A stretch of DNA of 64,000 nucleotides from Calditrichaceae bacterium (GTDB lineage: Bacteria; Calditrichota; Calditrichia; Calditrichales; JBFXGD01): the NCBI GenBank assembly GCA_050173015.1, contig JBFXLE010000010.1, positions 46,841-110,840 on the forward strand. Direction: 5' to 3'. The position numbers and the translations under genes were made by a program. The notes below the pieces were generated by a model, which did not search any database, was not told the DNA's origin, and was given only the letters and a program-made list of their open reading frames with translations. Every line of letters starts with the position of its first letter. The stretch's first letter is position 1. Below, in pieces: positions 6,886 to 58,429 of this stretch.

Positions 6886-9882
6886 TTACAATCTTAAAAT
6901 GGGAAGATCAGAGAGGTCACCTGAACTTGTCATTTCCTTTAAAAACGGGGACGACTTCTGCATCTTGCCAAATCGGTTTTTGACTGCTGTCAGGATAACT
7001 TCTTTTCTTGCTCTCGTAATCCCGACATAAAGAAGTCGTTTTTGTTCTTCCAGTTTTTTGGCGACGGGACGGTTATCCTGATCATCTTTTTTATAGGCAA
7101 AAAAGCTGGGCATGGTATCATCTTCCAGCCCCTGAATGATCACATGGTCAAACTCCAGTCCCTTTGCGGAATGATATGTGAGGAGAGAAACGGCATCAAT
7201 ACTTCCAAGACTATCCTGTGGATTTATCAGCAGGATAAACGATAAAAATTCAGCTATTGCCTGATCGACAGGCTGATGTTTGAACTGATCGGCAATTTCA
7301 AGCATTCGTTTGAACGCGTCATCTTTCATGTCATATGCCGTAATGCCCGTCATCACCTGCTCTGCTCTGCTGCGTATTTTTTCCCTTAATTCCGCTTCCG
7401 AATAATTAAATCTAACGGCAAATTTGCTCAATATTTCTGAATAGGGCGAGAGCAATTTACGCGCGCCCGAAGCAAAAAATATCCGGTCTTCAACGGCCAC
7501 CAGTTTGTCTTCCAGTAAATTTCCCAGGGCAACATACTCGGTAAGATTTTCCCCGGCGATCCTCATCTCCCTTTTTATGGCAACCTGGTGCATTTTCTGA
7601 ATAATTTCATGCAGTACGCGCACATCGTCCAGCGCTCTATGTCTGTTCCCGGGATCAAGCTTAAACCGGTCCGCCAGCGCGTCAATCGAATTTTGCTTAG
7701 CTGGATATAAGTGGCGGGCGAAAACAAGTGAATCATAACGTGTGTTCGGAAGCCGGTCATTTAGCAGGCCGCGTGAATACCGGTCGATTATTTTAAAATC
7801 AAAACTGTATCCGTTATGTGCAATCAATAAATCATTTCCGGCAAAATCGATCATTTTTTTAATAGCTGTTTTCATGTCGGGAGCATCTCTGATATCTTCT
7901 TCGGTGATATGGTGTACCGCCTGCGCTTCCGGTTCGATAGGCATGCCGGGATTAACCAGGATTTGAAACTCATCCGTGATTATAGAATCACGTACACGGA
8001 CGGCCGCGATTTCAACAATCGCGCATTTTTCTGGATCTCTTCCGGTTGTTTCCAGGTCAAACACCACATAATCCCTAAAAAATGGCGTGCGGGACTGTTT
8101 CAGGCCTGACTGCATTCTTCGAAAAAGCGTAGAAATCGAACCCTTTCTCTTTTCATCAGTTTTATCGTGCAAAATTTCTACTTCGCAGGACAATTTTTGG
8201 TCATTCATAGGCGACAGCAAAATTACCACATCCATAGGATTGATATTGATAATATTCTCATTTTTTAAAACATGAACGCGGTTTTGGTATAACAGCTGCA
8301 GCATTTGACAGCCGACAAAAGACAATTGCTCGTTCGTGTGATATACCCAAATTTGCGCCTTCGGATTTCTGGCTTTATTGTTTTCCCTGAAAGCAACATC
8401 GGTTATCTTCTCTACATTATGTTCCAGCATGGTTTTTTCCATGTCCTTTGAGCTGCGTAATATTTCCAGCACCAGGCTGTCAAACTTGTAAAATGATTTC
8501 AGATTCACAAGATTCGCGATGTTTCCGATAAATGCATTTGTTCTCCTTCGAATATCAGATCCGATTTCAGCCCGGTTTGAGAAATCGTTCAAAGCCTTCC
8601 TGAAAGTAGATTTCTCTCCTAAATTCTGATAATTCTGAATCTGTTTGTATATGTGATGTCCCAGCTCTATTTCCACCAGCTCTTCAAGGACAAGATTATC
8701 GGCCGGATTTCTGATGAGCTTCAGATACGATAAGAGGCGAACCATTTTTGGCTGATCAAGTAGATTTTTTCCGGATGCCTGTTGATAGGGAATTCTTTCT
8801 TTCAGTAACCTGACGGCAATCTGGTCGCCAAACCGGTGCTGAGGATAGATGATGGCTATCTCGGAGTAATCCGCCTTTTGCGCTGTGTGCCATTCATCTA
8901 TTTTTTTTACTATAAATTCGATCTCTTTCCCCTCTTCTTCAAACAAAGCTACCTGTATCAGATCCTCTTTTTGCGCGTCCGGAATGATAACTTTGTCCGG
9001 CTCAATCCTGTCCGTCGATTTCACGATGGCTTGAGCCGCCCGGGTGATTTTTTCTCCGCTTCTGTAGTTAACTTCGAGAAACACCGGTTCTTCTATTAAA
9101 AAATCATCCATATACTGGCGTATATTTTCCGGATTGGCGCCCCGCCAGGAATAAATTGACTGATCGTCATCAGCCACGACAAAGATATTGCGATGTTTTT
9201 CGGCAAGCATTTTGATAATCTGATACTGAACCAAATCCGTATCCTGAAATTCATCAACGAGAACGGATTGATAGAGAAACCGATACTGATCCAGAATATC
9301 CTTATTTGCCTTTAGAAGAGAAAGCGTTTTGACAAGAATTTGATTATAATCGATAAGGCCGTGTTTTTGGAGATGATTTTCATACTTTTCATAGACCATG
9401 GCCGAAAAAGACGGCAGAGGATTGCCTTTTAACAGGAAATTTGAGAACGCCAGCTGAATGCCTTTGACTACTCTTTCCGGATTTTCCCTAACCTTACCGC
9501 TTATCAGGCTTTTTAGAAGACGATTCTGATAATCATCATCACATATGCTAAAATATTTACTTAATCCCGCGGGTTCATGGTATTTTCTAAGAATATCAAG
9601 ACAAAATGAGTGGATGGTTCCGGTCCTTACTTTCTCCGCCTTCGAATCCAGTATCTTTGTTAATCGCAGTTTTATTTCACCCGCGGCTTTATTGCTGAAT
9701 GTGAGGGCCAGGATGTTTTCAGGGGGGATATTGTAATGATGAACTTCATAAACAATCCGCGCGATCAGAGCCCTGGTTTTTCCGGTTCCGGGTCCCGCTA
9801 TCATCAGCACCGGCTGTCGCGGCGCGGTCACCGCCTTTAGCTGACTTTTGTTTAATTCATCTAAAATTTTCCTGACTGACAT
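6886..9882 (-). CDS. UvrD/PcrA-type SF1 helicase with an internal DnaQ-like DEDDh 3'-5' exonuclease domain
   Basis: Helicase motifs I (AGPGTGKT), Ia, II (VDEFQDTD), III (ADDDQSIYSWRGA), IV (VNYRSG), V (TYHSAKGLEFDHVII) and VI (LLYVGITRARKEV) are all present. Between IV and V lie Exo I (VFDLETTG), Exo II (HNGYSFDF) and Exo III (HRALDDV). The ORF opens with TTG at 9924; ATG at 9882 (MSVRKILDELN) is the likelier start. Confidence 0.85.
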   Translation of the reverse strand: MSVRKILDELNKSQLKAVTAPRQPVLMIAGPGTGKTRALIARIVYEVHHYNIPPENILALTFSNKAAGEIKLRLTKILDSKAEKVRTGTIHSFCLDILRKYHEPAGLSKYFSICDDDYQNRLLKSLISGKVRENPERVVKGIQLAFSNFLLKGNPLPSFSAMVYEKYENHLQKHGLIDYNQILVKTLSLLKANKDILDQYRFLYQSVLVDEFQDTDLVQYQIIKMLAEKHRNIFVVADDDQSIYSWRGANPENIRQYMDDFLIEEPVFLEVNYRSGEKITRAAQAIVKSTDRIEPDKVIIPDAQKEDLIQVALFEEEGKEIEFIVKKIDEWHTAQKADYSEIAIIYPQHRFGDQIAVRLLKERIPYQQASGKNLLDQPKMVRLLSYLKLIRNPADNLVLEELVEIELGHHIYKQIQNYQNLGEKSTFRKALNDFSNRAEIGSDIRRRTNAFIGNIANLVNLKSFYKFDSLVLEILRSSKDMEKTMLEHNVEKITDVAFRENNKARNPKAQIWVYHTNEQLSFVGCQMLQLLYQNRVHVLKNENIININPMDVVILLSPMNDQKLSCEVEILHDKTDEKRKGSISTLFRRMQSGLKQSRTPFFRDYVVFDLETTGRDPEKCAIVEIAAVRVRDSIITDEFQILVNPGMPIEPEAQAVHHITEEDIRDAPDMKTAIKKMIDFAGNDLLIAHNGYSFDFKIIDRYSRGLLNDRLPNTRYDSLVFARHLYPAKQNSIDALADRFKLDPGNRHRALDDVRVLHEIIQKMHQVAIKREMRIAGENLTEYVALGNLLEDKLVAVEDRIFFASGARKLLSPYSEILSKFAVRFNYSEAELREKIRSRAEQVMTGITAYDMKDDAFKRMLEIADQFKHQPVDQAIAEFLSFILLINPQDSLGSIDAVSLLTYHSAKGLEFDHVIIQGLEDDTMPSFFAYKKDDQDNRPVAKKLEEQKRLLYVGITRARKEVILTAVKNRFGKMQKSSPFLKEMTSSGDLSDLPILRL

Positions 9883-10112
9883 CTGCAAATCCCTGTTAGT
9901 ATTTTTAATCCCGGCGGGTTGCAACTTTTGTTTTCGGATCTAAGAATATTTGATGAGAATAACCGGAATTGTGAACGGGCAATTATAAATTTATTGTCTC
10001 GTCGCGGCTGTTGATTCCGAATTATGTTCTGAGATACAACCGGATTTAACGGCCGGATAATTTATGTTCAAAGATATATGAATAATATACAAAAAACGGA
10101 TTAGCGTTGTAA

Positions 10113-12091: not shown

Positions 12092-12922
12092 TTAATTAGC
12101 TAAATCAAGACTTTTCTGAATAATATGTACCTTTGAACTATGCGGAAGCGGGGGAGAAATTAATGACAAGGTGTCCGCGGTTCCGATCTTCAGAATTTCC
12201 AGAGTTTCTCCTCCATCCCCTGTTGAAAGCAGTTTGCCGGAAGCATCAAAATATCTGCTTTCTATGTACTCTCCCTTGATTTTTCCGACGTCAATCATGC
12301 CTTTTACACGTGTCTCTTCCCCCATGCCGGCTTCAATATTATTTATTAAAATCGTGATCAGTCCCTGTGAATTATCGACCCGATTAACAATACCTTGAAC
12401 TTTAACTGAATCTGTTTTTAATTCTGCGCGTTGCCCTTTGTATATATAGCGGGCCTGTTCATAGCTTAACGGTACTTTCAGAATCTGATAGTCATTGTTT
12501 CTGATCTCAAATAGCGGGGTCCCTGGACCGATGTTATCACCAACTTTAATAAATACTTTTGTGATTTCACCCGTCATTGGCGACCGGATGTCAATGGGTG
12601 TATATTCTTTTTGTTTTGAAAGGCTCCATAAACCGGCCAGAAAGTCGTTCTGATTTACTTTCTTGCCTTGTTCCACAAGCAGCGCTATCACATTCGAGCT
12701 ATCCGCGGAGTATATAATTCTATGTTCAAAAGCTTCTGTCATCCCTTCAAACGGAATATATACCTGCCGGTATTCATGATGGATATCCACAGAATCAGCA
12801 ATCAGATTCATATCCTGAACTATGAGTTTTTGGTCCGGATTCTGATTCGCCTGACTCCCGCACCCACTAAGAGACAATTGAATCAAAATGCAAATGCCAG
12901 TAAAACTAATACCTGTACTCAT
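12092..12922 (-). CDS. HlyD/membrane-fusion-protein-like lipoprotein (biotin-lipoyl-like hairpin)
   Basis: 276 aa. Lipobox (LSLSG-C-GS). SPMTGEITKVFIKVGDNIGPGTPLFEI is the typical barrel-sandwich hybrid motif of periplasmic adaptor proteins. Confidence 0.45.
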   Translation of the reverse strand: MSTGISFTGICILIQLSLSGCGSQANQNPDQKLIVQDMNLIADSVDIHHEYRQVYIPFEGMTEAFEHRIIYSADSSNVIALLVEQGKKVNQNDFLAGLWSLSKQKEYTPIDIRSPMTGEITKVFIKVGDNIGPGTPLFEIRNNDYQILKVPLSYEQARYIYKGQRAELKTDSVKVQGIVNRVDNSQGLITILINNIEAGMGEETRVKGMIDVGKIKGEYIESRYFDASGKLLSTGDGGETLEILKIGTADTLSLISPPLPHSSKVHIIQKSLDLAN

Positions 12923-13156
12923 TAAGATTATTCCTGATATCTATTAACTCGATTATCGTCTTAATCCGTTGAATTGACTGATAACGCGGTCCAAAATCAA
13001 TTTATCCTAAAAAATGATCCATTAATAATCTGGAATAATCGAATCTGTACTCCGGTTAGATGAGTACAAAATATTCATTTATCGATGTTAAATTTAAAGT
13101 AAATCACTTTTACCGGAAAATAAACAATTTTTATCACAATTAAGGGGGATTTTTTT

Positions 13157-13693
13157 ATGAGCAAGGAATTTAAGAACCATCATTCAAATAAATTAGCGGG
13201 ATTTACAAAAGGCTCCATTCTTCTGAGCGCTATTGCCGGATTAACGGTTGGTCAGGCGCCGGAGAATGTCTTTGCCTATTCACCGCTGGGATCGGGAAGC
13301 GAAGTGAGAGAAGCGCTTTCATCTCTGAATAACGCGCCTAAAGCGCCGGCAGAACTCAAATGCGCGGGAGAGACTAAGAAATCCGCGGAGAAAAAAGCCG
13401 ATGCCAAACATGAGGCAAAGGAGATGAAGGATGCAAAAGCGGCCGAGGCAAAATGCGGTGAAGGGAAATGCGGCGAATCTAAAGCCGATATGAAAAAAGC
13501 CGGCGCGATAAAGGACAGCGCGTCAGTAGAATCGAAGGCGGCCGAAGCTAAGTGTGGTGAGGGTAAATGCGGAGAGGGAAAGTGCGGTGAGGGTAAAGCT
13601 TCCGATAAAAAGGCTGTAGATAAAAAAGCCGATGCGGTTAATGATTCAAAGGCAGCGGAAGCCAAGTGTGGCGAAGGTAAATGCGGACAATAA
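13157..13693 (+). CDS. secreted Cys-repeat (EGKCG) precursor protein, HvfA-like putative RiPP metallophore substrate
   Basis: 178 aa. Sec-type signal (GSILLSAIAGLTVG...VFA|YS). The mature part is Lys/Ala/Glu-rich with 8 Cys (aa 69, 100, 105, 133, 138, 143, 171, 176); seven sit in AEAKCGEGKCG(EGKCG) blocks. Synonymous codon variation between the blocks argues for selection on the peptide. It lies directly upstream of the DUF692 and DUF2063 genes. Confidence 0.8.
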   Translation: MSKEFKNHHSNKLAGFTKGSILLSAIAGLTVGQAPENVFAYSPLGSGSEVREALSSLNNAPKAPAELKCAGETKKSAEKKADAKHEAKEMKDAKAAEAKCGEGKCGESKADMKKAGAIKDSASVESKAAEAKCGEGKCGEGKCGEGKASDKKAVDKKADAVNDSKAAEAKCGEGKCGQ

Positions 13694-13702
13694 TTATTCT
13701 TT

Positions 13703-13743
13703 GGGCAGGCATTTCTATCCGCCTGCCCGATTTTTATTTTTTT
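13703..13743 (+). terminator. intrinsic terminator/attenuator between the precursor and maturase genes
   Basis: Stem GGGCAGGC (13703-13710) / GCCTGCCC (13721-13728), 10-nt loop, then the T-rich tract GATTTTTATTTTTTT. AGGAG and the next ATG follow immediately. Confidence 0.6.
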
Positions 13744-13760
13744 AAGGAGTGAGGCCTATA

Positions 13761-14594
13761 ATGATCAAGGGAGCCGGTTTGGGATTCAGGCGGCACCTTG
13801 CCGACGATCTGATTGGCGCGGAGAAAAACAAACCGCAGTTTGTGGAATTCGCGCCTGAAAACTGGATGGGCATGGGCGGCTACTGGGGTAAAAAATTAAA
13901 AGCCGTAGTCGAAAAATATCCGATTATCAACCACGGGTTATCACTTTCCATCGGAAGCCCCGAACCGCTGGACTGGGATTTCCTGAAAGATCTAAAGAAA
14001 TTTTTTAATGAATTCCCTGTACAGATTTATTCAGAGCATTTGAGTTACAGTAAATGCAACAATGCTCATTTATATGACCTTTTGCCTATCCCCTTCCGCG
14101 AAGATGCTGTACGCCATATCGTTGACCGTATCAGACAAATCCAGGATTTTCTTGAACGGCCCATCGCTATCGAAAATGTTTCTTATTATACACCGGTCGC
14201 GGCGGAAATGGATGAAATTACTTTTATTAATACAATTGTTAATGAATCCGGCTGCAACCTTCTTCTCGACGTTAACAATGTTTATGTCAACGCCTTCAAT
14301 CATCAATATGACGCCAAGGAGTTCATAAGCGGAATTCCTCTTGATAAAGTCGTTTATATCCACATGGCGGGTCATGAACAGGTCAGTCCGGACCTGATTA
14401 TAGATACACACGGCCAGCCCATTATAGATCCCGTATTTGATTTATTTGAATGGACAATCGAAAGAGTTAAACCGGTTCCGGTACTTCTGGAACGTGATTT
14501 TAATATTCCTGAATTTGACGAACTGCAGGTTGAGTTAGGCCGTCTGCAGTCATTAATGGAATTGAAATGGGAAGCTCAAAATGTTGTTGCGTGA
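13761..14594 (+). CDS. DUF692/UPF0276 family multinuclear non-heme iron oxidase (MNIO; MbnB/HvfB/BufB-like peptide maturase)
   Basis: TIM-barrel-type family motifs are present: GLGFRR, YSEHLSY, AIENVSYY, LLLDVNNVYVNA, YIHMAGH, VLLERDFN. The track ORF starts at GTG 13749; ATG 13761, preceded by AGGAG (13745-13749), is the likelier start. Confidence 0.85.
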   Translation: MIKGAGLGFRRHLADDLIGAEKNKPQFVEFAPENWMGMGGYWGKKLKAVVEKYPIINHGLSLSIGSPEPLDWDFLKDLKKFFNEFPVQIYSEHLSYSKCNNAHLYDLLPIPFREDAVRHIVDRIRQIQDFLERPIAIENVSYYTPVAAEMDEITFINTIVNESGCNLLLDVNNVYVNAFNHQYDAKEFISGIPLDKVVYIHMAGHEQVSPDLIIDTHGQPIIDPVFDLFEWTIERVKPVPVLLERDFNIPEFDELQVELGRLQSLMELKWEAQNVVA

Positions 14595-15333
14595 AGAAAC
14601 CCGTCAAATACAAAATGAGCTTGCGGACTACTGCCGCAGCGGTGTACCCCGTCCAATCAAAGGGGCTAAAGCGGATCGTTTGCACCACTACCGGAGACTG
14701 GTCTTCAATGTCATCAACGGTACCCTCGAAACCGCCTATCCGGTAACTCGTCAGATATTACCCGAGGAAGACTGGACTCAGATGGTGAATGACTTTTTTA
14801 TCAACCATAATCCTCAGTCTCCGCAGGTCTGGAAGATGCCTTATGAATTCTATATTTTCTGTTCAGAAAACAAATATTCTGAAAAATTTCACCGCCCTTA
14901 TCTGACTGATTTGCTGTATTTTGAATGGATCGAGATTGAAGTACACACGATGGAGGACCTGATCATTCCGCCGTTTCAATCCGAAGGTGATTTACTTGAG
15001 AGCCCGCTCATCATCAATCCTGAGTTCCGGCTGATCCGATTAACTTATCCCGTACACAAATTCTCTTCTGATGAACTTTCCGCGAATGCCGGTGATTACT
15101 TTATCCTCTGTTACCGGGAACAAAAAAATCTGTCTGTAAGATTTTTTGAGTTTTCCTCGTTTTTCGCGGTGGTGTTTGAGAAACTAATTAATAATCGTAT
15201 TTCAGGAAAAGAAGCGTTAGCCGAAGCGGGAATGCTTTTCGACATTCATGACGAACAGGTATTGCTTCAAAACGGACTGCCATTTTTTAACGATTTGTTT
15301 ACTCAGGGTATCATTCTTGGTTTTGCCCCCTAG
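14581..15333 (+). CDS. DUF2063 family protein (MbnC/HvfC/BufC-like MNIO partner)
   Basis: 250 aa. The N-terminal pattern ...LQ.ELA.Y.R......I.G....RL..YRRLVFN.I.G.LE.AYPV.R..L is typical of DUF2063. It overlaps the MNIO gene by 14 nt, suggesting translational coupling. Confidence 0.75.
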   Translation: MLLREETRQIQNELADYCRSGVPRPIKGAKADRLHHYRRLVFNVINGTLETAYPVTRQILPEEDWTQMVNDFFINHNPQSPQVWKMPYEFYIFCSENKYSEKFHRPYLTDLLYFEWIEIEVHTMEDLIIPPFQSEGDLLESPLIINPEFRLIRLTYPVHKFSSDELSANAGDYFILCYREQKNLSVRFFEFSSFFAVVFEKLINNRISGKEALAEAGMLFDIHDEQVLLQNGLPFFNDLFTQGIILGFAP

Positions 15334-30476: not shown

Positions 30477-31934
30477 TTATGATTTCTCCGGGTTGTTTTT
30501 AAACGGACCGGCTTCAATACCATATCTTTTGAGCATCTTATGAAGCCCCACCCGACTAATACCAAGAACCATCGCGGATTGTTGTATATTCCCGTTCATC
30601 TCACGCAGAGTATTTGTAATCATCGTTCGCTCCAGATCCGCGACAGCTTCCTTTAGATTATGATTTTTTTGAAGACTAAATCCGGTTGAAATTTCCGTGT
30701 TTTGAAATCTCACGGATAACATATCCGCCGAGATGACTCCATGCTGATCTGCCAGGGTAACCAGACGCTCTATTTCGTTTTCAAGCTCCCTGATGTTGCC
30801 CGGATAATCGGCATTTGTCAGGATTTGAATCACCTCTTCATCCATCCGCTCTATTTCTTTTCCGATTCGACGCGTATATTTTTGCAAAAAATGACTGATC
30901 AGCTCCGGGATATCCTGCTTTCTTTCGCTCAGCGGCGGTAAAATCAGCGGGAAAACACTTAATCGATAAAAAAGATCTTCACGGAAACGGCCATCCTGAA
31001 CGTCTTTCCGGAGGTCTCTGTTTGTCGCGGCCACAATTCTTACATCAACTTTTTTAGTCTTTGAAGCGCCGACCGGTTTTATCTCGCCCTCCTGGAGCAC
31101 CCTGAGCAACCCCAACTGCAAAGCCGGAGTAGTGTCGCCTATTTCATCCAGAAAAACAGTCCCTTTATCCGCGGTTTCAAACAGCCCCTTTTTATCCTGT
31201 ATGGCGCCGGTGAACGCTCCTTTTACATGTCCGAACAGTTCGCTTTGCAGAAGCGTATCCGGAATAGCCCCGCAATTTTGCGCGACAAATATATTGTCTT
31301 TACGGTTGCTGTTATAATGAATCATCTTTGCCAGCAGCTCTTTCCCCGTCCCGGTTTCTCCCAGGATGAGCACGGTCGTCGGGGTCTCAACCACCTTCCG
31401 GACCAATTTGAATATCTTGAGCATCTTAGGACTGTGCCCGATAAAATTCCCCAGATCGAGTTGTTTTTCCACCTGTTTCTGAAGTTCGACATTTTCGCTG
31501 GCAAGCTGCCGGTTCGCCCGAAGAAGCTGTTCCTGCAGCTGAGTATTCCGCGCGGAAAGCCGGAATCTTTCGACGGCGCGGCGCACCGCCAGTTTGAGTT
31601 CATCCGGCTCGAATGGTTTTGAGATATACTGGTAAATCTGCGCCTGATTCACCGCGTTTATAGATGCTTCAATATCCGCGTAACCGGTGATCATGATCCT
31701 CACCGCTTCCGGCTGAATCTTTATGGCTTCGCTTAAAAAGGTCACTCCGTCCATTACGGGCATACGCTGATCGGCCAGAATAACCGCCACATCGCGCTCT
31801 TTCAGGTGTTCGAGGGCTTCTCTGCCGCTTTCGGCAGTAAGCACGTCATAGTCACGGCGAAATATATGTTTCATTGTGTTCAATATTTCCGGCTGATCAT
31901 CCACAATCAGGATGGAGTCTTTTTTCTCAGTCAT
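30477..31934 (-). CDS. sigma-54-dependent response regulator (NtrC family enhancer-binding protein)
   Basis: 485 aa. REC domain (ILIVDDQP...DQRMP), AAA+ domain (GETGTGKE, ELFGHVKGAFTGA, the GAFTGA loop), and a C-terminal Fis-type HTH. Confidence 0.9.
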   Translation of the reverse strand: MTEKKDSILIVDDQPEILNTMKHIFRRDYDVLTAESGREALEHLKERDVAVILADQRMPVMDGVTFLSEAIKIQPEAVRIMITGYADIEASINAVNQAQIYQYISKPFEPDELKLAVRRAVERFRLSARNTQLQEQLLRANRQLASENVELQKQVEKQLDLGNFIGHSPKMLKIFKLVRKVVETPTTVLILGETGTGKELLAKMIHYNSNRKDNIFVAQNCGAIPDTLLQSELFGHVKGAFTGAIQDKKGLFETADKGTVFLDEIGDTTPALQLGLLRVLQEGEIKPVGASKTKKVDVRIVAATNRDLRKDVQDGRFREDLFYRLSVFPLILPPLSERKQDIPELISHFLQKYTRRIGKEIERMDEEVIQILTNADYPGNIRELENEIERLVTLADQHGVISADMLSVRFQNTEISTGFSLQKNHNLKEAVADLERTMITNTLREMNGNIQQSAMVLGISRVGLHKMLKRYGIEAGPFKNNPEKS

Positions 31935-34900
31935 TTTTCTCTCCGGCGGCGCCTGACAATGGCAGCCTTATGATAAATTTAGTACCCTTTCCGATCTGAC
32001 TTTCCACTTCAATCGTCCCCTTATGATGCTGAATTATCGAATATGAAATACTGAGTCCGAGCCCCGTGCCCTTATTGACATCCTTTGTAGTAAAAAACGG
32101 ATCAAAAATTTTCGGAATGACTTTAGCGGGGATACCCGACCCGCTGTCTTCAATCTCCACCGTCATAAATTTATCGTCAGAATAGGTTCGCAGGCATATT
32201 GATCCTTTGCCCTTAATGGATTGCAGGGCGTTGGAAATTAAATTGACAAACACCTGATTCAACTGGCCGGGATTACATAAAAACCTGGGATCATCACGAA
32301 AATCTTTTATGATCTCTATAGATTCCGGGATTTGATGCCGTAAAATTTTTAAACTGCTTTCCAGTCCTGAAACCACACTTGCCTCTTTCCATTCCGCCTG
32401 ATCCAGCCTGGAAAAATTTTTCAGATTCTGTACCAGTTCTTTTACTGTTCTGCTGCCGTTCTGACTGTCATTGATGATATTCCTCAAATCATCCAGGATC
32501 GCGGGGAACTGAGTAAAAACCGCGTGCTCCGGCGGGAGATCCAGTCCGGTCAGAATTTTATTGAGTTCATCCATATATCCGTTAAGAATATTCATATTCG
32601 CGTAAATAAAACTGACCGGATTATTTAATTCATGCGAAATTCCCGCCACCAGTTGTCCGAGGGATGCCATTTTTTCTGAATGGATTAGCTGCGCTTCCTT
32701 CTGTTGCAATTCCCGGAACAGTTTCTGAAGTTCATTGTTTTTCTCATCCAGCTCGTTATTCGTCCTTTCAAGCTCGGTGACATATTGTTCTTTTAACCGG
32801 GCCGTGGTCAGTTTTTTTACCAGTTCGGCGGTTTCTTCTATATAATTATTATTCTCGATCGTGATGGCGGCCTGATTGGATATAGTGGAAATTAACTGGA
32901 GATCCTGCTGATTCAACGGAGACTCTGAATGATTCATCTCAAGCGCGATCAGTCCATAAAGCAGTTGGTTTCGCTTCACCGGAATGAGCACATTAAGGTT
33001 CGTCTTTCCGGGTGTCAAATCCAATGCGGTCCGGCCGCGGTTTATAATTTTCTCATGGATCAGCTGTTCTCTTTCTTTATCATCAAAACGCAGCGTGGCG
33101 TTTTCTGAAAGATCTAAATTTGGCGGCACATAACCGGGTTTCATCTCACCCTGACCGTTGCAAAAGAAGGCGGCTTTCTCAATTTCATTATGCTGAATAA
33201 CAGTATCGACCAGTTTTTTGTACAAATCTTCATTACTGTGAATCTCTATCATCTGATCGCTTAATTCCTGAAGCAGCAATCTGAATCTCCCCCGCCGGCG
33301 TCTGATTTTAATCAGATGTTCAGAATACATAACCGAAACAATTCCGGCGAATAGCGTCAGCCCGTTCAGCGTAACCAACGCGTCGGTCATTACTCTCTGA
33401 CTAAAAACAATAAAAACGATCAGCGATACAATAAACCAGACCGTGAGCTGCATGGAAATGCTGAATGCTGTCCACTGATACCGTCTCAGACCCAGAGTAA
33501 CATAACCGTAAAGCAGCGCGGAAAGCAGTATAAACAGCATAAGACTAAACCAGAATGCAGATTGCCCGGCCCGATACTTGAATCCGTACCACCCGAAATA
33601 CAGCCCGCCGATAAGCGTCCCATACTCCGAAACCAAATAGGATTTTCCCGGCGTCAAACCGGTCAGCGTGATTCGCTTGCCGGAAGGAAAAAGTATTTCG
33701 GCGTTAAACCCGGCATATTGCCCCGCGCCAAAATGAATAACCGGATCCGATGAAGACAGATACCCCTTATTTGCCGAAACTTCCCTGAATCCGATTAGTT
33801 TTTTCAGAGAATCGTTTCCCGTATAAAAATAGACCTTCGCGCCGATGGCATCTCTGTTGGAACGAACGCCCGTCAACCGCAGACTGATGAAGTTTTTATT
33901 GTTGGTGGGATTTAAATAAATCTGGCTGAATTCATCCTTATTAGACACAAAAATATCCAGGTCACCGTCCCCGTCGAGATCCGCGGCGGCGCTCCCCGTG
34001 CTGTAGGTGTGACGGGTATCCGCGTCGTACCCGGGAAGAAATCCGCCCTGCCCGTCACCGAGATATAGCCGGTTGATCCCTTTAATTGTCAGAAAACTGT
34101 CCAGCCAGCCGTCATGATTAAAATCTTCGAACAATAGCCCGTAAACACTTTGGCCGATACGATAAAACGGATGCGACGTGACATTGACAAACCTGATTTT
34201 GCCCGGAAGTGATTCATTTCTGTAATAAAAAACAAACCCCTCCCTGGTGGCTACAAAAACATCCAAATCTCCATCGTTATCGATATCCGCGAAGGCCGCG
34301 CTGTTTGAAGAAATTGGCTGGGTAAGTGTCTGAAGATCCATTCGCAAAGGCGTGAAAATACCGGCGCCGTCATTTATCAGCAGATAGTCCGGGCTAAACC
34401 AATTGGCCACATATATATCCGGATCACCGTCCCCGTCAAGATCACCCGCGCATACACCCTGACTAACCGCCGAATCGATGAATGATTCCGTCCAGATTTG
34501 TTCCCTGAATTTACCGTTACCCTGATTTATCAGCAGACGGTTGCTAAAATGTTCATCGCTGATGTAGAGATCCAGATAACCATCCATATTTACATCGGTC
34601 CACAAGCCCTGATTTGCATCAACCGGCCCGGGCGCGTTCAGATTCCCGGTGGCGTCATCAAAGAGCACACCGCCGTTATTATGAAACAGCGTGATCGTTT
34701 TTCCCCATCCGGCCAGAAAAATATCCGGCAGGCCGTCATTATCATAGTCGGCAGCGGATGAACCCAGTTCGAGATTCGTCTGACCGCGCGGCATGAGATA
34801 TCCGCCAAGACCTGAATAAATCGTCCGGTCGATAAACGGGATAATCCCCCCGTTATTGATCAGCAGGCGGTTCAGATTTCTAAAACACACCAGATAAATA

Positions 34901-35094
34901 TCGGGGTAGCCATCATTGTTAAAATCCCTGAAGGCGACACCGTATCCATCATCAATATCGGGAATCAGACCGGTAATCAAGTTCGATTTCAGCATTTGGA
35001 AATCAGCATCACTTTCAGAAGACGCGGCGGCCGAAAAAAAAGAAATTACCAGGATGAAAAAGGCAAATACGATCGTTTTGTAATATTTATGCAT
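31927..35094 (-). CDS. sensor histidine kinase with periplasmic FG-GAP/VCBS beta-propeller (ASPIC/UnbV-like), multi-TM, GAF and HisKA-HATPase domains
   Basis: 1055 aa. There are six or more Ca-binding-type repeats ([54 protein letters not shown]). These are followed by hydrophobic helices, a coiled coil, the H-box GISHELNNP, and N/G boxes (NLISNA, DSGSGI, GTGLGL). It overlaps the regulator gene by 8 nt. Confidence 0.85.
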
Positions 35095-45644: not shown

Positions 45645-45740
45645 GTCTCAGATGGCTGAAATGGCAAGGCATAACTGGAAACCAAGCCTGTTAAGCTTGG
45701 TGATAAGGTTACATTGCAGGTTCGAATCCTGCCTGGGGCA
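45645..45740 (+). ncRNA. tRNA-like element (non-canonical; Asn-type anticodon loop, canonical T-arm, oversized D and variable regions)
   Basis: T-arm GCAGG-TTCGAAT-CCTGC. A 7-bp acceptor-like helix GTCTCAG/CTGGGGC (2 G-U pairs) is extendable by TTTTGT/ACAAAA. Stem-loop CAAGC-CTGTTAA-GCTTG (anticodon GTT). The 5' region is about 11 nt too long, the variable region is 16 nt, and position 8 is A rather than U. Confidence 0.4.
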
Positions 45741-45780
45741 CAAAATGTAATATTTAAGAGGGAATGAATTTAATTTTTCT

Positions 45781-56133: not shown

Positions 56134-56208
56134 GGGCGGTTAGCTCAGCTGGTTTAGAGCACCTGCCTTACAAGCAGGGGGTCATAGGTTCGAATCCTAT
56201 ACCGCCCA
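56134..56208 (+). tRNA. tRNA-Val: tRNA-Val (anticodon TAC)
   Basis: Hand-folded 75-nt cloverleaf: acceptor GGGCGGT/ACCGCCC, D-arm GCTC...GAGC, anticodon arm CCTGC-CTTACAA-GCAGG, V-loop GGGTC, T-arm ATAGG-TTCGAAT-CCTAT, discriminator A. CCA is not encoded. Confidence 0.95.
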
Positions 56209-56575: not shown

Positions 56576-58429
56576 TTGATATCGATACGGAGATCTAAAA
56601 TGAATGACCGTGAACGTACAAATGATTTGTATGAGATTATTCCCGGTTATCCAAAGCCTCCATTAATTCCGCTGCCCGATTCTGCCAGGATGAATAATCC
56701 CGAAGGACTTGGATTAAAAAATCATTTCATTCCAAGACTGGTTCTTTCACTAACAAAAAAAATTCTTGGATTTGACGCTTTTTATAAGGAATTTTCCGCG
56801 GATCCTGAACCGGTCCTTCGGCGAAGCGATCTTCGTGAGCCGGGACTCTTTACTCCGGTGATTTCAGCGACATTGGCGTTAAAAGACGAACCGGGCGTCA
56901 ATGATCCGTTTGCGCGAGCCGCAAAACTGATACTTGGAGCGCGCACCCTCTATCATGATATCATCACAGCAAGGCTAAAACCCGATATACACCGCGACCA
57001 AATACTTGAAATGGGGCAATATCCCAATTTATTTTCGACATGTCAGGTTGTGGACGGACGTACGGCAAGAATATTTAAGAGTACTGAAAATTCACAGATT
57101 ACGGTATTTGCAAACGGGCAGATTTACATTTTGAAAGTATGGCCCGCAAATGAACATCCTTCTGTAAACCGGCTTCGCGTTGCCCTTGAACACATTTCTT
57201 TAGATGCTCAAAATTTAACCGGGTATTCTCCCGGAATACTGACAGCCGCCTCCAACAAAACACAGTTCCGCGCGTTTAAAAAGCTGCGAAAAGCGGCAAC
57301 CAACCGCGATTCACTTGAGATTATCAAGCACAGTTTCCTGACGATCTGCATCGATCTGAACGAGCAACCGGTTGACTATGCCGAGGCGGCCCGCATGATT
57401 CACAGCGGAAATTATACCAACCGCTGGTTTCATTCAAGCCTGCAAATTGTTGTATTCAGAAACGCAAAAGCGGGTATTATCTGCAATTTCAGTACATACC
57501 TGGACGGTAACACCATGGTTCGAGCCGCAGCCGAAATCTACTGTCGTTCGACGGAAATATATCCGGAAAATGAGAAAACAGTGAACTCTGAAAATCTGCC
57601 CCCTGCCGTTCGGTTAAATTGGGATTTTGATCCATCAATCCTTGAACCGGCAAAAAAAGATCTTCAATTCATCAACGACGATCAGCGCGCGACCTTTGAA
57701 ATATCCGGTATCGGGAAGGAGTTTTTTCAAAAACATCGTCTTGATCCGGTATCTTCATTTATCGTAGCATTGCAAACAGCTCTAAATTCACTGACCGGTA
57801 AAAAGGTGCGGATTGAACAATTTCTCGCCATGTCAAAGTTTCGCTGTATGTCCTTGGAAACCGCAATGGTCTCAACGCCCGAAGTTCTCAGAATGGCTGA
57901 ACTTCTTTCGAAGAACTGCGACGGCGACGCGACAGAGATAACGATCCTGCAAGAAGCATTGACTTCCCAACGTCTTGTCTGCGGAAAAGCCCGGGAACAT
58001 CTTTCGAGTCATATCATAATGGCGCTTTTTATCCGTTCAAAAAAGGGATTCAAACTTTTTGTGACCATGGTGATCGCTTCAATTTCGATCCTTCTGCTCA
58101 GAATGCTTGGAATGTTTGATCTGCTGAACAGAGATGTGATTGTTTCTCATCCGCAGAATTTTTCGGAAGTTCCGATCGTCGGAAGACCGGGAATTCGATT
58201 GCCGTATATAAAATATTTAGGTTTGCATTATCATCTACTTGAGGACAGGATTCGTATAACCCTGATGCCTTCAGTCAGTTTTAAAATTCCGAATGAAAAA
58301 ATAATCGAAACATTAAATCATAATTTGAAAAATTTAGTACGTTTTGTGGAAAGAAGAAATACCGCGGATACGATAAATGAAAAAGGCCCTGATCTTTACC
58401 GTCAGGGCCCAAAAAAAACTAAAACTTAA
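56576..58429 (+). CDS. choline/carnitine O-acyltransferase family homolog lacking the catalytic histidine
   Basis: 617 aa. MGQYPNLFSTC resembles the family motif M.QY..LFSS.R. NRWFHSSLQIVVFRNAKAGIICNFSTYLDG aligns with NRW(F/Y)DKSLQL(I/V)V..DG..G...EHS..DG of CrAT/ChAT/CPT, with NFS replacing EHS. TTG starts the track ORF; ATG 56599 is an alternative start. Confidence 0.65.
   Translation: MISIRRSKMNDRERTNDLYEIIPGYPKPPLIPLPDSARMNNPEGLGLKNHFIPRLVLSLTKKILGFDAFYKEFSADPEPVLRRSDLREPGLFTPVISATLALKDEPGVNDPFARAAKLILGARTLYHDIITARLKPDIHRDQILEMGQYPNLFSTCQVVDGRTARIFKSTENSQITVFANGQIYILKVWPANEHPSVNRLRVALEHISLDAQNLTGYSPGILTAASNKTQFRAFKKLRKAATNRDSLEIIKHSFLTICIDLNEQPVDYAEAARMIHSGNYTNRWFHSSLQIVVFRNAKAGIICNFSTYLDGNTMVRAAAEIYCRSTEIYPENEKTVNSENLPPAVRLNWDFDPSILEPAKKDLQFINDDQRATFEISGIGKEFFQKHRLDPVSSFIVALQTALNSLTGKKVRIEQFLAMSKFRCMSLETAMVSTPEVLRMAELLSKNCDGDATEITILQEALTSQRLVCGKAREHLSSHIIMALFIRSKKGFKLFVTMVIASISILLLRMLGMFDLLNRDVIVSHPQNFSEVPIVGRPGIRLPYIKYLGLHYHLLEDRIRITLMPSVSFKIPNEKIIETLNHNLKNLVRFVERRNTADTINEKGPDLYRQGPKKTKT

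Follow-up and report, generated by a model that had tools for sequence, protein, structure and literature searches.

A probable hvfABC-type captophorin (oxazolin) gene cluster on a Calditrichaceae chromosome

The closest described relatives of the gene cluster analyzed here are the HvfA/HvfBC system and its kin. The cluster consists of three genes at 13157-15333 of a 64,000-nucleotide stretch of DNA from an uncultured Calditrichaceae bacterium, referred to below as the window (contig JBFXLE010000010.1, positions 46,841 to 110,840 of the forward strand). The "oxazolin" system HvfA/HvfBC was described in 2024: its 95-residue precursor carries a signal peptide, and six of its cysteines, located in three AEGKCGEGKCG motifs, become modified and bind Cu(I) (PMC11252979). 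The modification of HvfA has since been reassigned from oxazolone/thioamide to 5-thiooxazole, superseding for HvfA the chemistry given in an initial annotation of the window (PMC13097082; bioRxiv 10.64898/2026.07.17.739211). The active cofactor of HvfB, a multinuclear non-heme iron oxidase (MNIO), is a mixed-valent diiron center that forms only with the partner protein HvfC (bioRxiv 10.64898/2026.07.17.739211; PMC13097082). At least five EGKCG systems, all from Pseudomonadota, have been characterized, namely HvfA, FonA (which carries seven thiooxazoles), NgoA, NedA (a lipoprotein), and MmrA, so that the statement in the initial annotation that HvfA is the only characterized substrate of this type is outdated (PMC13097082, PMC13056109, PMC12538549). 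Copper binding, in some cases together with copper induction, has been demonstrated for HvfA, FonA, NgoA, and MmrA (PMC11252979, PMC13097082, PMC12538549). The class has been named the captophorins (PMC13097082).

One survey has recorded about 2,000 Buf_EGKCG/oxazolin precursors (PMC12452194), and another lists over 24,000 MNIO-PME1 loci (PMC13097082). Table S3 of the latter study lists 173 loci from Bacteroidota, 2 from Ignavibacteriota, and 1 from Calditrichota. The initial annotation had described the lineage as unstudied, which is true of experimental work but not of discovery, as shown by Table S3 of PMC13097082 and by the "HvfA family" names already in use at NCBI. In the same way, it recognized the kind of system correctly and overstated its novelty, as curated NCBIfam models already name the proteins. 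The cluster is a new member of a class that NCBI annotation models already recognize.

Open reading frame (ORF) calling returned three co-directional genes on the + strand, at 13157-13693, 13761-14594, and 14581-15333, the same three genes that the initial annotation had delimited. What the sequences show is the anatomy of the genes, the families they belong to, and the conservation both of the catalytic and specificity residues and of the synteny. The curated models for HvfB, for HvfC, and for the HvfA-family domain all scored above their cut-offs, in agreement with the families first proposed, and we name the genes hvfA, hvfB, and hvfC. We consider it highly likely that this is an hvfABC-type cluster of the Lys-Cys group (oxazolin/captophorin), directing the synthesis of a ribosomally made and post-translationally modified peptide (RiPP) by the mechanism proposed below. 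By analogy with characterized systems, the product very probably belongs to the oxazolin/captophorin class, as a secreted protein that binds copper through cysteine-derived groups.

The enzyme gene, hvfB (13761-14594), encodes an MNIO/DUF692 protein of the HvfB family. It matches Pfam PF05114 (MbnB_TglH_ChrH) with 337 bits against a cut-off of 25 and passes NF003818 (HvfB family MNIO-type RiPP maturase) with 385 bits against a cut-off of 360. It failed both the BufB equivalog model NF050167 (281 bits, cut-off 310) and the MbnB model TIGR04159 (48 bits, cut-off 325). The DUF692 crystal structure PDB 3BWW was matched with E = 8.5e-72, with the same motifs aligned. The motifs reported initially (SEHLS, IENVS, LLDVNN, IHMAGH, and LLERD) are all present, as is a further motif, DTHG, missing from that list. 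Sequence identity is 50% with FonB and 44% with each of H. influenzae HvfB and NgoB. Alignment with these three enzymes showed Arg-10, Arg-11, His-58, His-93, Glu-138, Asp-170, Asn-172, Asn-173, His-201, His-205, Asp-215, His-217, Glu-244, Asp-246, and Phe-247 to be invariant. The iron ligands of sites 1-3 are thus all conserved (the site-3 ligands of HvfB being N175/D242/H244; bioRxiv 10.64898/2026.07.17.739211), and Asp-246 is the equivalent of the catalytic base D249 of FonB. Loss of the metal ligands or failure to score as DUF692/MNIO had been named at the outset as grounds for abandoning the assignment; neither was encountered. Gadgil et al. identified an Arg-Arg pair and a Phe residue as marks of Lys-Cys-specific MNIOs (PMC13097082; bioRxiv 10.64898/2026.07.17.739211). 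Both are kept in the window enzyme, where R10-R11 (in GLGFRRH) correspond to R15/R16 of FonB and F247 (in LLERDF) corresponds to F250. The ATG at 13761 is the likelier start of hvfB because the alternative GTG at 13749 lies within the Shine-Dalgarno sequence AAGGAG (13744-13749) and because homologues begin MI.GAGLG.

The third gene, hvfC (14581-15333), encodes the PME1 partner, in which a DUF2063 domain (PF09836, 66.3 bits, cut-off 27.2) is followed by an NGO1945_C domain of the RiPP recognition element (RRE) type (PF22106, 36.3 bits, cut-off 27). It passes NF050145 (HvfC family RiPP maturation protein) with 148.7 bits against a cut-off of 142 and matches the structure of NGO1945 (PDB 3DEE) with E = 3.4e-7. 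Both the DUF2063 assignment and the 14-nucleotide overlap with the MNIO gene had been noted initially and hold; as judged from this overlap, hvfC is translationally coupled to hvfB.

The first gene, hvfA (13157-13693), is preceded by the Shine-Dalgarno-like sequence AAGGGGGA (13142-13149), which ends 7 nucleotides ahead of its ATG. The 178-residue product contains eight cysteines, seven of them in three blocks, as originally counted. Cys-69 lies in AELKCAG, and the others are distributed 2 + 3 + 2 over blocks of the AAEAKCGEGKCG type spaced 33-38 residues apart: block 1 (AAEAKCGEGKCGE, 13439-13477, Cys-100 and Cys-105), block 2 (AAEAKCGEGKCGEGKCGEGK, 13538-13597, Cys-133, Cys-138, and Cys-143), and block 3 at the C terminus (AAEAKCGEGKCGQ, 13652-13690, Cys-171 and Cys-176). 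There are seven KCG sites (three EAKCG and four EGKCG) in addition to the ELKCA site. The first 36 nucleotides of the three blocks encode an identical peptide and differ at 5-9 positions, all of them synonymous, showing, as the initial annotation had argued, that the peptide and not the DNA is conserved and that the peptide is under selection.

The precursor begins with a putative Sec-type signal peptide (residues 1-40, 13157-13276; alternatively residues 1-32). A rule-based check gave a net charge of +3 for the n-region and a mean hydropathy of 2.16 for the hydrophobic core at residues 21-32. The first 35 residues contain no cysteine, and so no lipobox cysteine, and the protein is therefore not a lipoprotein. 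The cleavage position is ambiguous, since small-x-small sites follow both residue 32 (TVG|QAP) and residue 40 (VFA|YS). Cleavage at VFA|YS is plausible; cleavage at TVG|QAP would retain the conserved F.Y after processing, which is the situation in most homologues. The signal-peptide layout is common to 90 homologues, and Sec signal peptides are also carried by HvfA and the bufferins (PMC11252979, PMC12452194).

The precursor matched the HvfA-family KCGExKCG_twice domain model NF050137 with 39.3 bits against a cut-off of 19.5 (E = 3.6e-10). A Pfam search with the precursor gave no match, and hence no DUF2282 domain, and the one match from a sequence search of the PDB, to ribosomal protein L6, was of low complexity and due to chance. 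Homologues could be detected in large number (821, the best being 55% identical), and those with names come from Calditrichia, Ignavibacteria, the Chlorobi group, Melioribacter, Bacteroidales, and Salibacteraceae. Two of them, from Caldithrix abyssi and Calditrichota LG25, already bear the NCBI name "HvfA family". An AlphaFold2 model built from a 90-sequence alignment was of low confidence (mean predicted local distance difference test score (pLDDT) of 52), disordered, and without β structure; the model is compatible with order that may form on modification or metal binding. A 129-residue ORF on the opposite strand (13276-13665) with SPH/LPSPH repeats was rejected as an artefact arising from the periodically recurring, GC-rich codons for Lys, Ala, Glu, and Gly, homology and synteny supporting the + strand only. 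A similar antisense ORF faces the precursor gene at locus L003, in a metagenome-assembled genome (MAG) of a related Calditrichaceae species.

Between the signal peptide and the cysteine blocks the precursor contains a module (residues 38-70, VFAYSPLGSGSEVREALSSLNN...AELKCA, 13268-13366, including Cys-69) that is conserved as strongly as the core, with the consensus LF.Y..LGSG.EVR..LL...ELKCG. In the 90-sequence alignment Ala-4, Gly-45, and Arg-51 are invariant, Gly-47 and Cys-69 are conserved at 99%, and the columns of block 2 are the best conserved of the family (93-99%). The sole confident element of the AlphaFold2 model, a helix at residues 47-59 (pLDDT 74-80), falls within this module. The first half of the module (VF..S.LG.G) is also found in the characterized FonA but is lacking in HvfA and NgoA, and the leader of MmrA, conserved to a comparable degree, has been modeled onto the MmrA RRE (PMC12538549). 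The conservation of the module, its helix, its sharing with FonA, and the leader/RRE model of MmrA make it probable that the module is a leader-like element to which the RRE domain of HvfC docks.

Gene order was compared across the 80 genome loci with the closest HvfB relatives (57-97% HvfB identity), drawn mostly from Chitinophaga, Bacteroidales, Marinilabiliaceae, Flavobacteriales, Ignavibacteria, and Calditrichaceae. A precursor gene encoding a signal peptide and KCG repeats lies directly upstream of hvfB at no fewer than 62 of them; the initial annotation had staked its reading on such conservation beside DUF692 genes. At 71-72 of the 80, hvfB overlaps at its 3' end with an hvfC gene, and the remainder are mostly contig ends. 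The nearest reference is the L002 locus of a Calditrichaceae MAG: the two HvfB proteins are 97% identical, and the DNA is collinear over 11.3 kb at 85% identity. The host belongs to the phylum Calditrichota, bearing out the first impression of a genome of the Fibrobacterota-Chlorobiota-Bacteroidota (FCB) type. The window sequence is also present on a Logan contig from run ERR1358766.

About half of the 80 loci add genes for an extracytoplasmic function (ECF) sigma factor, a zinc-associated anti-sigma (ZAS)-type factor, and DoxX directly after hvfC. DoxX occurs at 39 of the 80, and also at L003 and L004. The ZAS protein is soluble, has 80-103 residues and no Pfam match, and contains C...HxxxCxxC in 33 of 33 family members. 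The loci whose clusters are preceded by the ECF sigma factor and ZAS genes are L008, L009, L018, L024, L049, L081, and about 35 others. The frequency of ECF/ZAS genes among the related loci suggests that expression may be stress-inducible. Sigma/anti-sigma genes have been reported only for Buf1 clusters in the published survey, and the pairing with EGKCG clusters may therefore be undescribed (PMC12452194). The MAG of the nearest relative contains a second cluster, at L003:644-3302, in which hvfA-B-C is followed by DoxX, HvfB is 82% identical, and the precursor has 158 residues and seven cysteines. The same A-B-C-DoxX arrangement is found in a Caldithrix MAG. On the evidence of L003, the lineage keeps two clusters, with and without DoxX, and the window holds the DoxX-less paralogue. 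DoxX does not define the class, since the functional fon cluster lacks it (PMC13097082, Table S4).

The gap between hvfA and hvfB contains an intrinsic-terminator-like hairpin (13701-13743), with a 10-bp GC-rich stem and a 10-nucleotide loop at 13701-13730 and a T-run at 13731-13743. It folds at -18.9 kcal/mol (z = -5.5), and none of 200 shuffled sequences was as stable. The pattern-based terminator scan overlooked this hairpin because its loop exceeds 8 nucleotides, and direct folding with a shuffle control was used instead. Comparable hairpins follow the precursor stop codon at related loci (n = 61, mean minimum free energy -18.1 versus -9.0 for shuffles, median z of -4.15), and they occur at most related loci despite unrelated sequences. 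The hairpin probably acts as an attenuator, partial terminator, or stabilizer that would leave precursor transcript in excess over enzyme transcript. Such an excess is seen in many RiPP operons. No candidate turned up on the + strand upstream of hvfA when the region of the cluster was scanned for sigma-70 promoters, although the scan may not cover the promoter types of Calditrichota. An inverted repeat, TGTACTC-N9-GAGTACA, with perfect 7-bp arms at 13046-13068, about 90 nucleotides upstream of hvfA, was considered as an operator; its left arm is lost in the 85%-identical L002, and it is probably not one.

Chemistry, export, copper binding, and physiological role are taken here from the characterized Pseudomonadota relatives, and lead to the following proposal. 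The 178-residue precursor would be translated in the cytoplasm, where the module just past the signal peptide would be bound by the RRE-type domain of HvfC. HvfC and the iron enzyme HvfB would form a heterodimer, their translation being coupled by the gene overlap, and the hairpin after hvfA would keep precursor mRNA above hvfBC mRNA. Using O2 and a mixed-valent diiron center, HvfB would convert the cysteine of each (E/A)(G/A)KCG motif to a 5-thiooxazole, with 4 Da lost at each site. Modification is likely at seven sites, and Cys-69 in ELKCA is a possible eighth. The modified and largely disordered protein would then be exported by Sec, lose its signal peptide, and bind Cu(I) in the periplasm through pairs of thiooxazoles, at roughly 3-4 Cu per molecule. 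Its role would most likely be the sequestration of excess copper, given that copper or oxidative stress switches on related systems.

Several points weigh against this assignment. MNIOs need O2 and the cultured Calditrichota so far known are anaerobes, calling into question the conditions under which the enzyme would be active. HvfC shares only 19-26% identity with characterized partners. The precursor scores 43.2 bits against the HvfA equivalog model NF050188 and so fails its cut-off of 95; this is no warning sign, because the biochemically validated FonA (49.1 bits) also fails it while passing the domain model, and H. influenzae HvfA passes with 128. By these scores the precursor is not an H. 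influenzae-type orthologue, yet it has the same model status as the proven class member FonA. Cys-69 stands alone outside the blocks and may stay unmodified. Although FonBC tolerates Ala after Cys, so that ELKCA fits its sequence space, single repeats are not processed by FonBC in vitro (PMC13097082), and the N-terminal cysteines of H. influenzae HvfA stay unmodified (PMC11252979). Finally, Pfam scans of about 38 larger window ORFs found no CopA/CusABC/CueO/CsoR-type gene, a search of the 64-kb window with tblastn using 39 DoxX proteins from related loci gave no match, and homologues of DoxX, the ECF sigma factor, and the ZAS anti-sigma factor were looked for in the window and none was found. 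By these searches the window contains no copper gene, regulator, or DoxX that would point to a physiological trigger.

A broader proposal can be put forward tentatively, as something we think possible but would not presume: that the FCB precursors constitute a distinct, undescribed subfamily of EGKCG captophorins, recognizable by the extended module with its invariant Arg, helix, and 99% conserved extra Cys. The module would be a dedicated docking or priming site for HvfC, and its own Cys would be the first or a special site of modification or metal binding. Control of the FCB clusters would lie with a ZAS/ECF sigma switch of the RsrA-like kind, and the two paralogues, with and without DoxX, would be specialized for different roles.

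The same chemistry could serve a role that is not specific to copper, the product being a periplasmic thiol/thiooxazole buffer against oxidants or soft metals (gold, mercury, silver, zinc) that is made when the anaerobe meets oxygen. This would agree with the need of the enzyme for O2 and with the pairing of related FCB clusters with a soluble RsrA-like ZAS anti-sigma factor. RsrA-like ZAS anti-sigma factors are known for thiol-redox sensing. In the literature MNIO-PME1 clusters are connected not only with copper but also with oxidative stress and with gold (PMC13097082; PMC11252979), and MerC-bufferin fusions hint at other metals (PMC12452194). Nevertheless, every member tested binds Cu(I) and a redox role has been demonstrated for none, and the window itself lacks the ZAS/sigma pair; we regard this role as unlikely.

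A second possibility is copper acquisition, in which the product would be a methanobactin-like chalkophore scavenging scarce copper for cuproenzymes, a function raised for oxazolin by Manley et al. (PMC11252979) and compatible with the lack of a stress regulator beside the window cluster. However, no TonB-dependent receptor, MbnE/MbnT-like uptake gene, or exporter was found in the Pfam scans of the larger window ORFs or at the 80 related loci, and the product would be a Sec-exported protein of about 14 kDa and not a small secreted peptide. The enzyme also falls far short of MbnB-type models (above), and related systems respond to copper excess or oxidative stress and not to starvation (PMC13097082; PMC12538549). 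Acquisition is thus very unlikely. We give almost no credence to the idea that the window cluster is a decaying or silent paralogue of a functional DoxX-containing cluster such as that of the related MAG, for although the nearest relative has both an ABC-only (L002) and an ABC-DoxX (L003) cluster and the window lacks DoxX, sigma, and anti-sigma genes, none of the three ORFs is broken, the catalytic residues are conserved, the ribosome-binding sites are good, the cysteine blocks are constant as peptide despite synonymous drift, the functional fon cluster is likewise ABC-only (PMC13097082, Table S4), and the arrangement is kept between two species at 85% DNA and 97% HvfB identity, which argues for purifying selection. 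Sequestration of copper by a thiooxazole protein is the reading we retain.

The surroundings of the cluster are those of an ordinary chromosome, with genes for topoisomerase I, RecJ, succinate dehydrogenase, a subtilase sorted by the type IX secretion system, and many peptidases. The initial annotation had remarked on the lack of a DoxX-type or TonB-type gene nearby, a remark consistent with the tblastn search and the Pfam scans of the window, and had correctly identified the neighbors as an SSS transporter downstream and an HlyD-like lipoprotein upstream. The lipoprotein gene (12092-12922, - strand) is divergent and encodes 276 residues with a weak HlyD_3/CusB-type barrel-sandwich domain; the protein falls well short of the usual length of membrane-fusion proteins, and no pump gene adjoins it. 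Among the related loci these two neighbors recur only in the near-identical L002, and they are therefore not part of the system. A 1,055-residue histidine kinase with an FG-GAP/ASPIC-UnbV repeat sensor, an unusual sensor architecture, is followed by a sigma-54-dependent response regulator (30477-35094, - strand); the pair, at a distance of 15 kb, shows no link to the hvf cluster.

Elsewhere in the window, a UvrD-type helicase of 1,012 residues (6886-9924, - strand) has an RNase_T/DEDD 3'-5' exonuclease domain (residues 619-773) inserted within UvrD_C. A 617-residue ORF (56576-58429, + strand) belongs to the choline/carnitine O-acyltransferase family (PF00755, 160 bits). As this family is mainly eukaryotic, a bacterial chromosome is an unusual place for it. 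A search of the window with Rfam at the gathering threshold found only a tRNA-Val (56134-56208). A 97-nucleotide "tRNA-???" with the four-base anticodon acca, called by ARAGORN at 45645-45741, is probably a false positive.

The class, its chemistry, the enzyme determinants, and the broad taxonomic spread are already published and represented in NCBI models, and the cluster opens no new question. Its value lies mainly in representing the FCB lineage with a well defined leader-like module. Confirmation would carry experimentally grounded knowledge of 5-thiooxazole copper-binding proteins beyond Pseudomonadota, into Calditrichota and the FCB group at large. The cluster would also provide a natural ABC-only substrate with 7-8 sites and a clearly delimited leader-like module for studies of recognition by the partner protein.

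Among known systems the most distant comparison is with methanobactin (MbnABC), in which, as proposed for the window cluster, an MNIO and its partner oxidize the cysteines of a ribosomal peptide to copper-binding heterocycles. There, however, the product has oxazolone/thioamide groups and is a small leader-cleaved peptide, with dedicated TonB uptake that has no counterpart among the scanned window ORFs, and the window enzyme reaches only 48 of the 325 bits required by the MbnB model. The bufferins (BufABC; DUF2282/Buf1 and Buf2, in Caulobacter and others) are, as is proposed for the window product, Sec-exported periplasmic copper binders with MNIO- and PME1-installed 5-thiooxazoles, and the enzymes are close relatives, that of the window scoring 281 bits with the BufB model. 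The window enzyme misses the cut-off of 310, however, and the precursor lacks DUF2282 and has its cysteines in a Lys-Cys and not a Cys-Lys context.

The Buf_EGKCG/oxazolin family of Leprevost et al. shares with the window the EGKCG repeats, the Sec signal peptide (putative in the window), and a core of precursor, MNIO, and DUF2063 genes to which DoxX is optional (PMC12452194). Its type 1 members have repeats 17 residues long, each containing a pair of EGKCG motifs, forming a β-helix, whereas the blocks of the window precursor are 33-38 residues apart and its AlphaFold2 model is disordered save for one helix. The family is reported mostly from Pseudomonadota, and the same survey gives sigma/anti-sigma genes for Buf1 clusters only, whereas about half of the FCB EGKCG loci have them. 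The hvfXABC (oxazolin) cluster of non-typeable H. influenzae is closer, with a precursor that carries a signal peptide (putative in the window) and eight cysteines, most of them in AE(G/A)KCGEGKCG blocks (PMC11252979; bioRxiv 10.64898/2026.07.17.739211), and with a maturase pair of an HvfB-family MNIO and an HvfC-family PME1 whose NCBIfam models the window proteins pass. The differences are the DoxX gene hvfX, which the window lacks, a precursor of 95 residues without the LGSG module and with two N-terminal cysteines in a disulfide, and a 23-residue insert after the AGH motif of HvfB that is missing from the window enzyme.

The fonABC (fontiphorin) cluster of Fontimonas thermophila differs in having a partner protein that is only 26% identical and a host in Pseudomonadota rather than Calditrichota. 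The window precursor is 70 residues longer than FonA and contains a further conserved stretch, E(V)R..L..N...ELKC, in which the eighth Cys lies; its spacers of Lys/Ala/Glu, at about 22-27 residues, far exceed those of FonA. In other respects the two are alike. Both clusters consist of A, B, and C genes only, without DoxX (PMC13097082). The MNIOs are 50% identical and agree in the Arg-Arg pair, the catalytic-base Asp, and the Phe determinant, and both precursors have a Sec-type N terminus (putative in the window), then VF..S.LG.G, and then 2 + 3 + 2 cysteine blocks of (E/A)xKCGEGKCG repeats.

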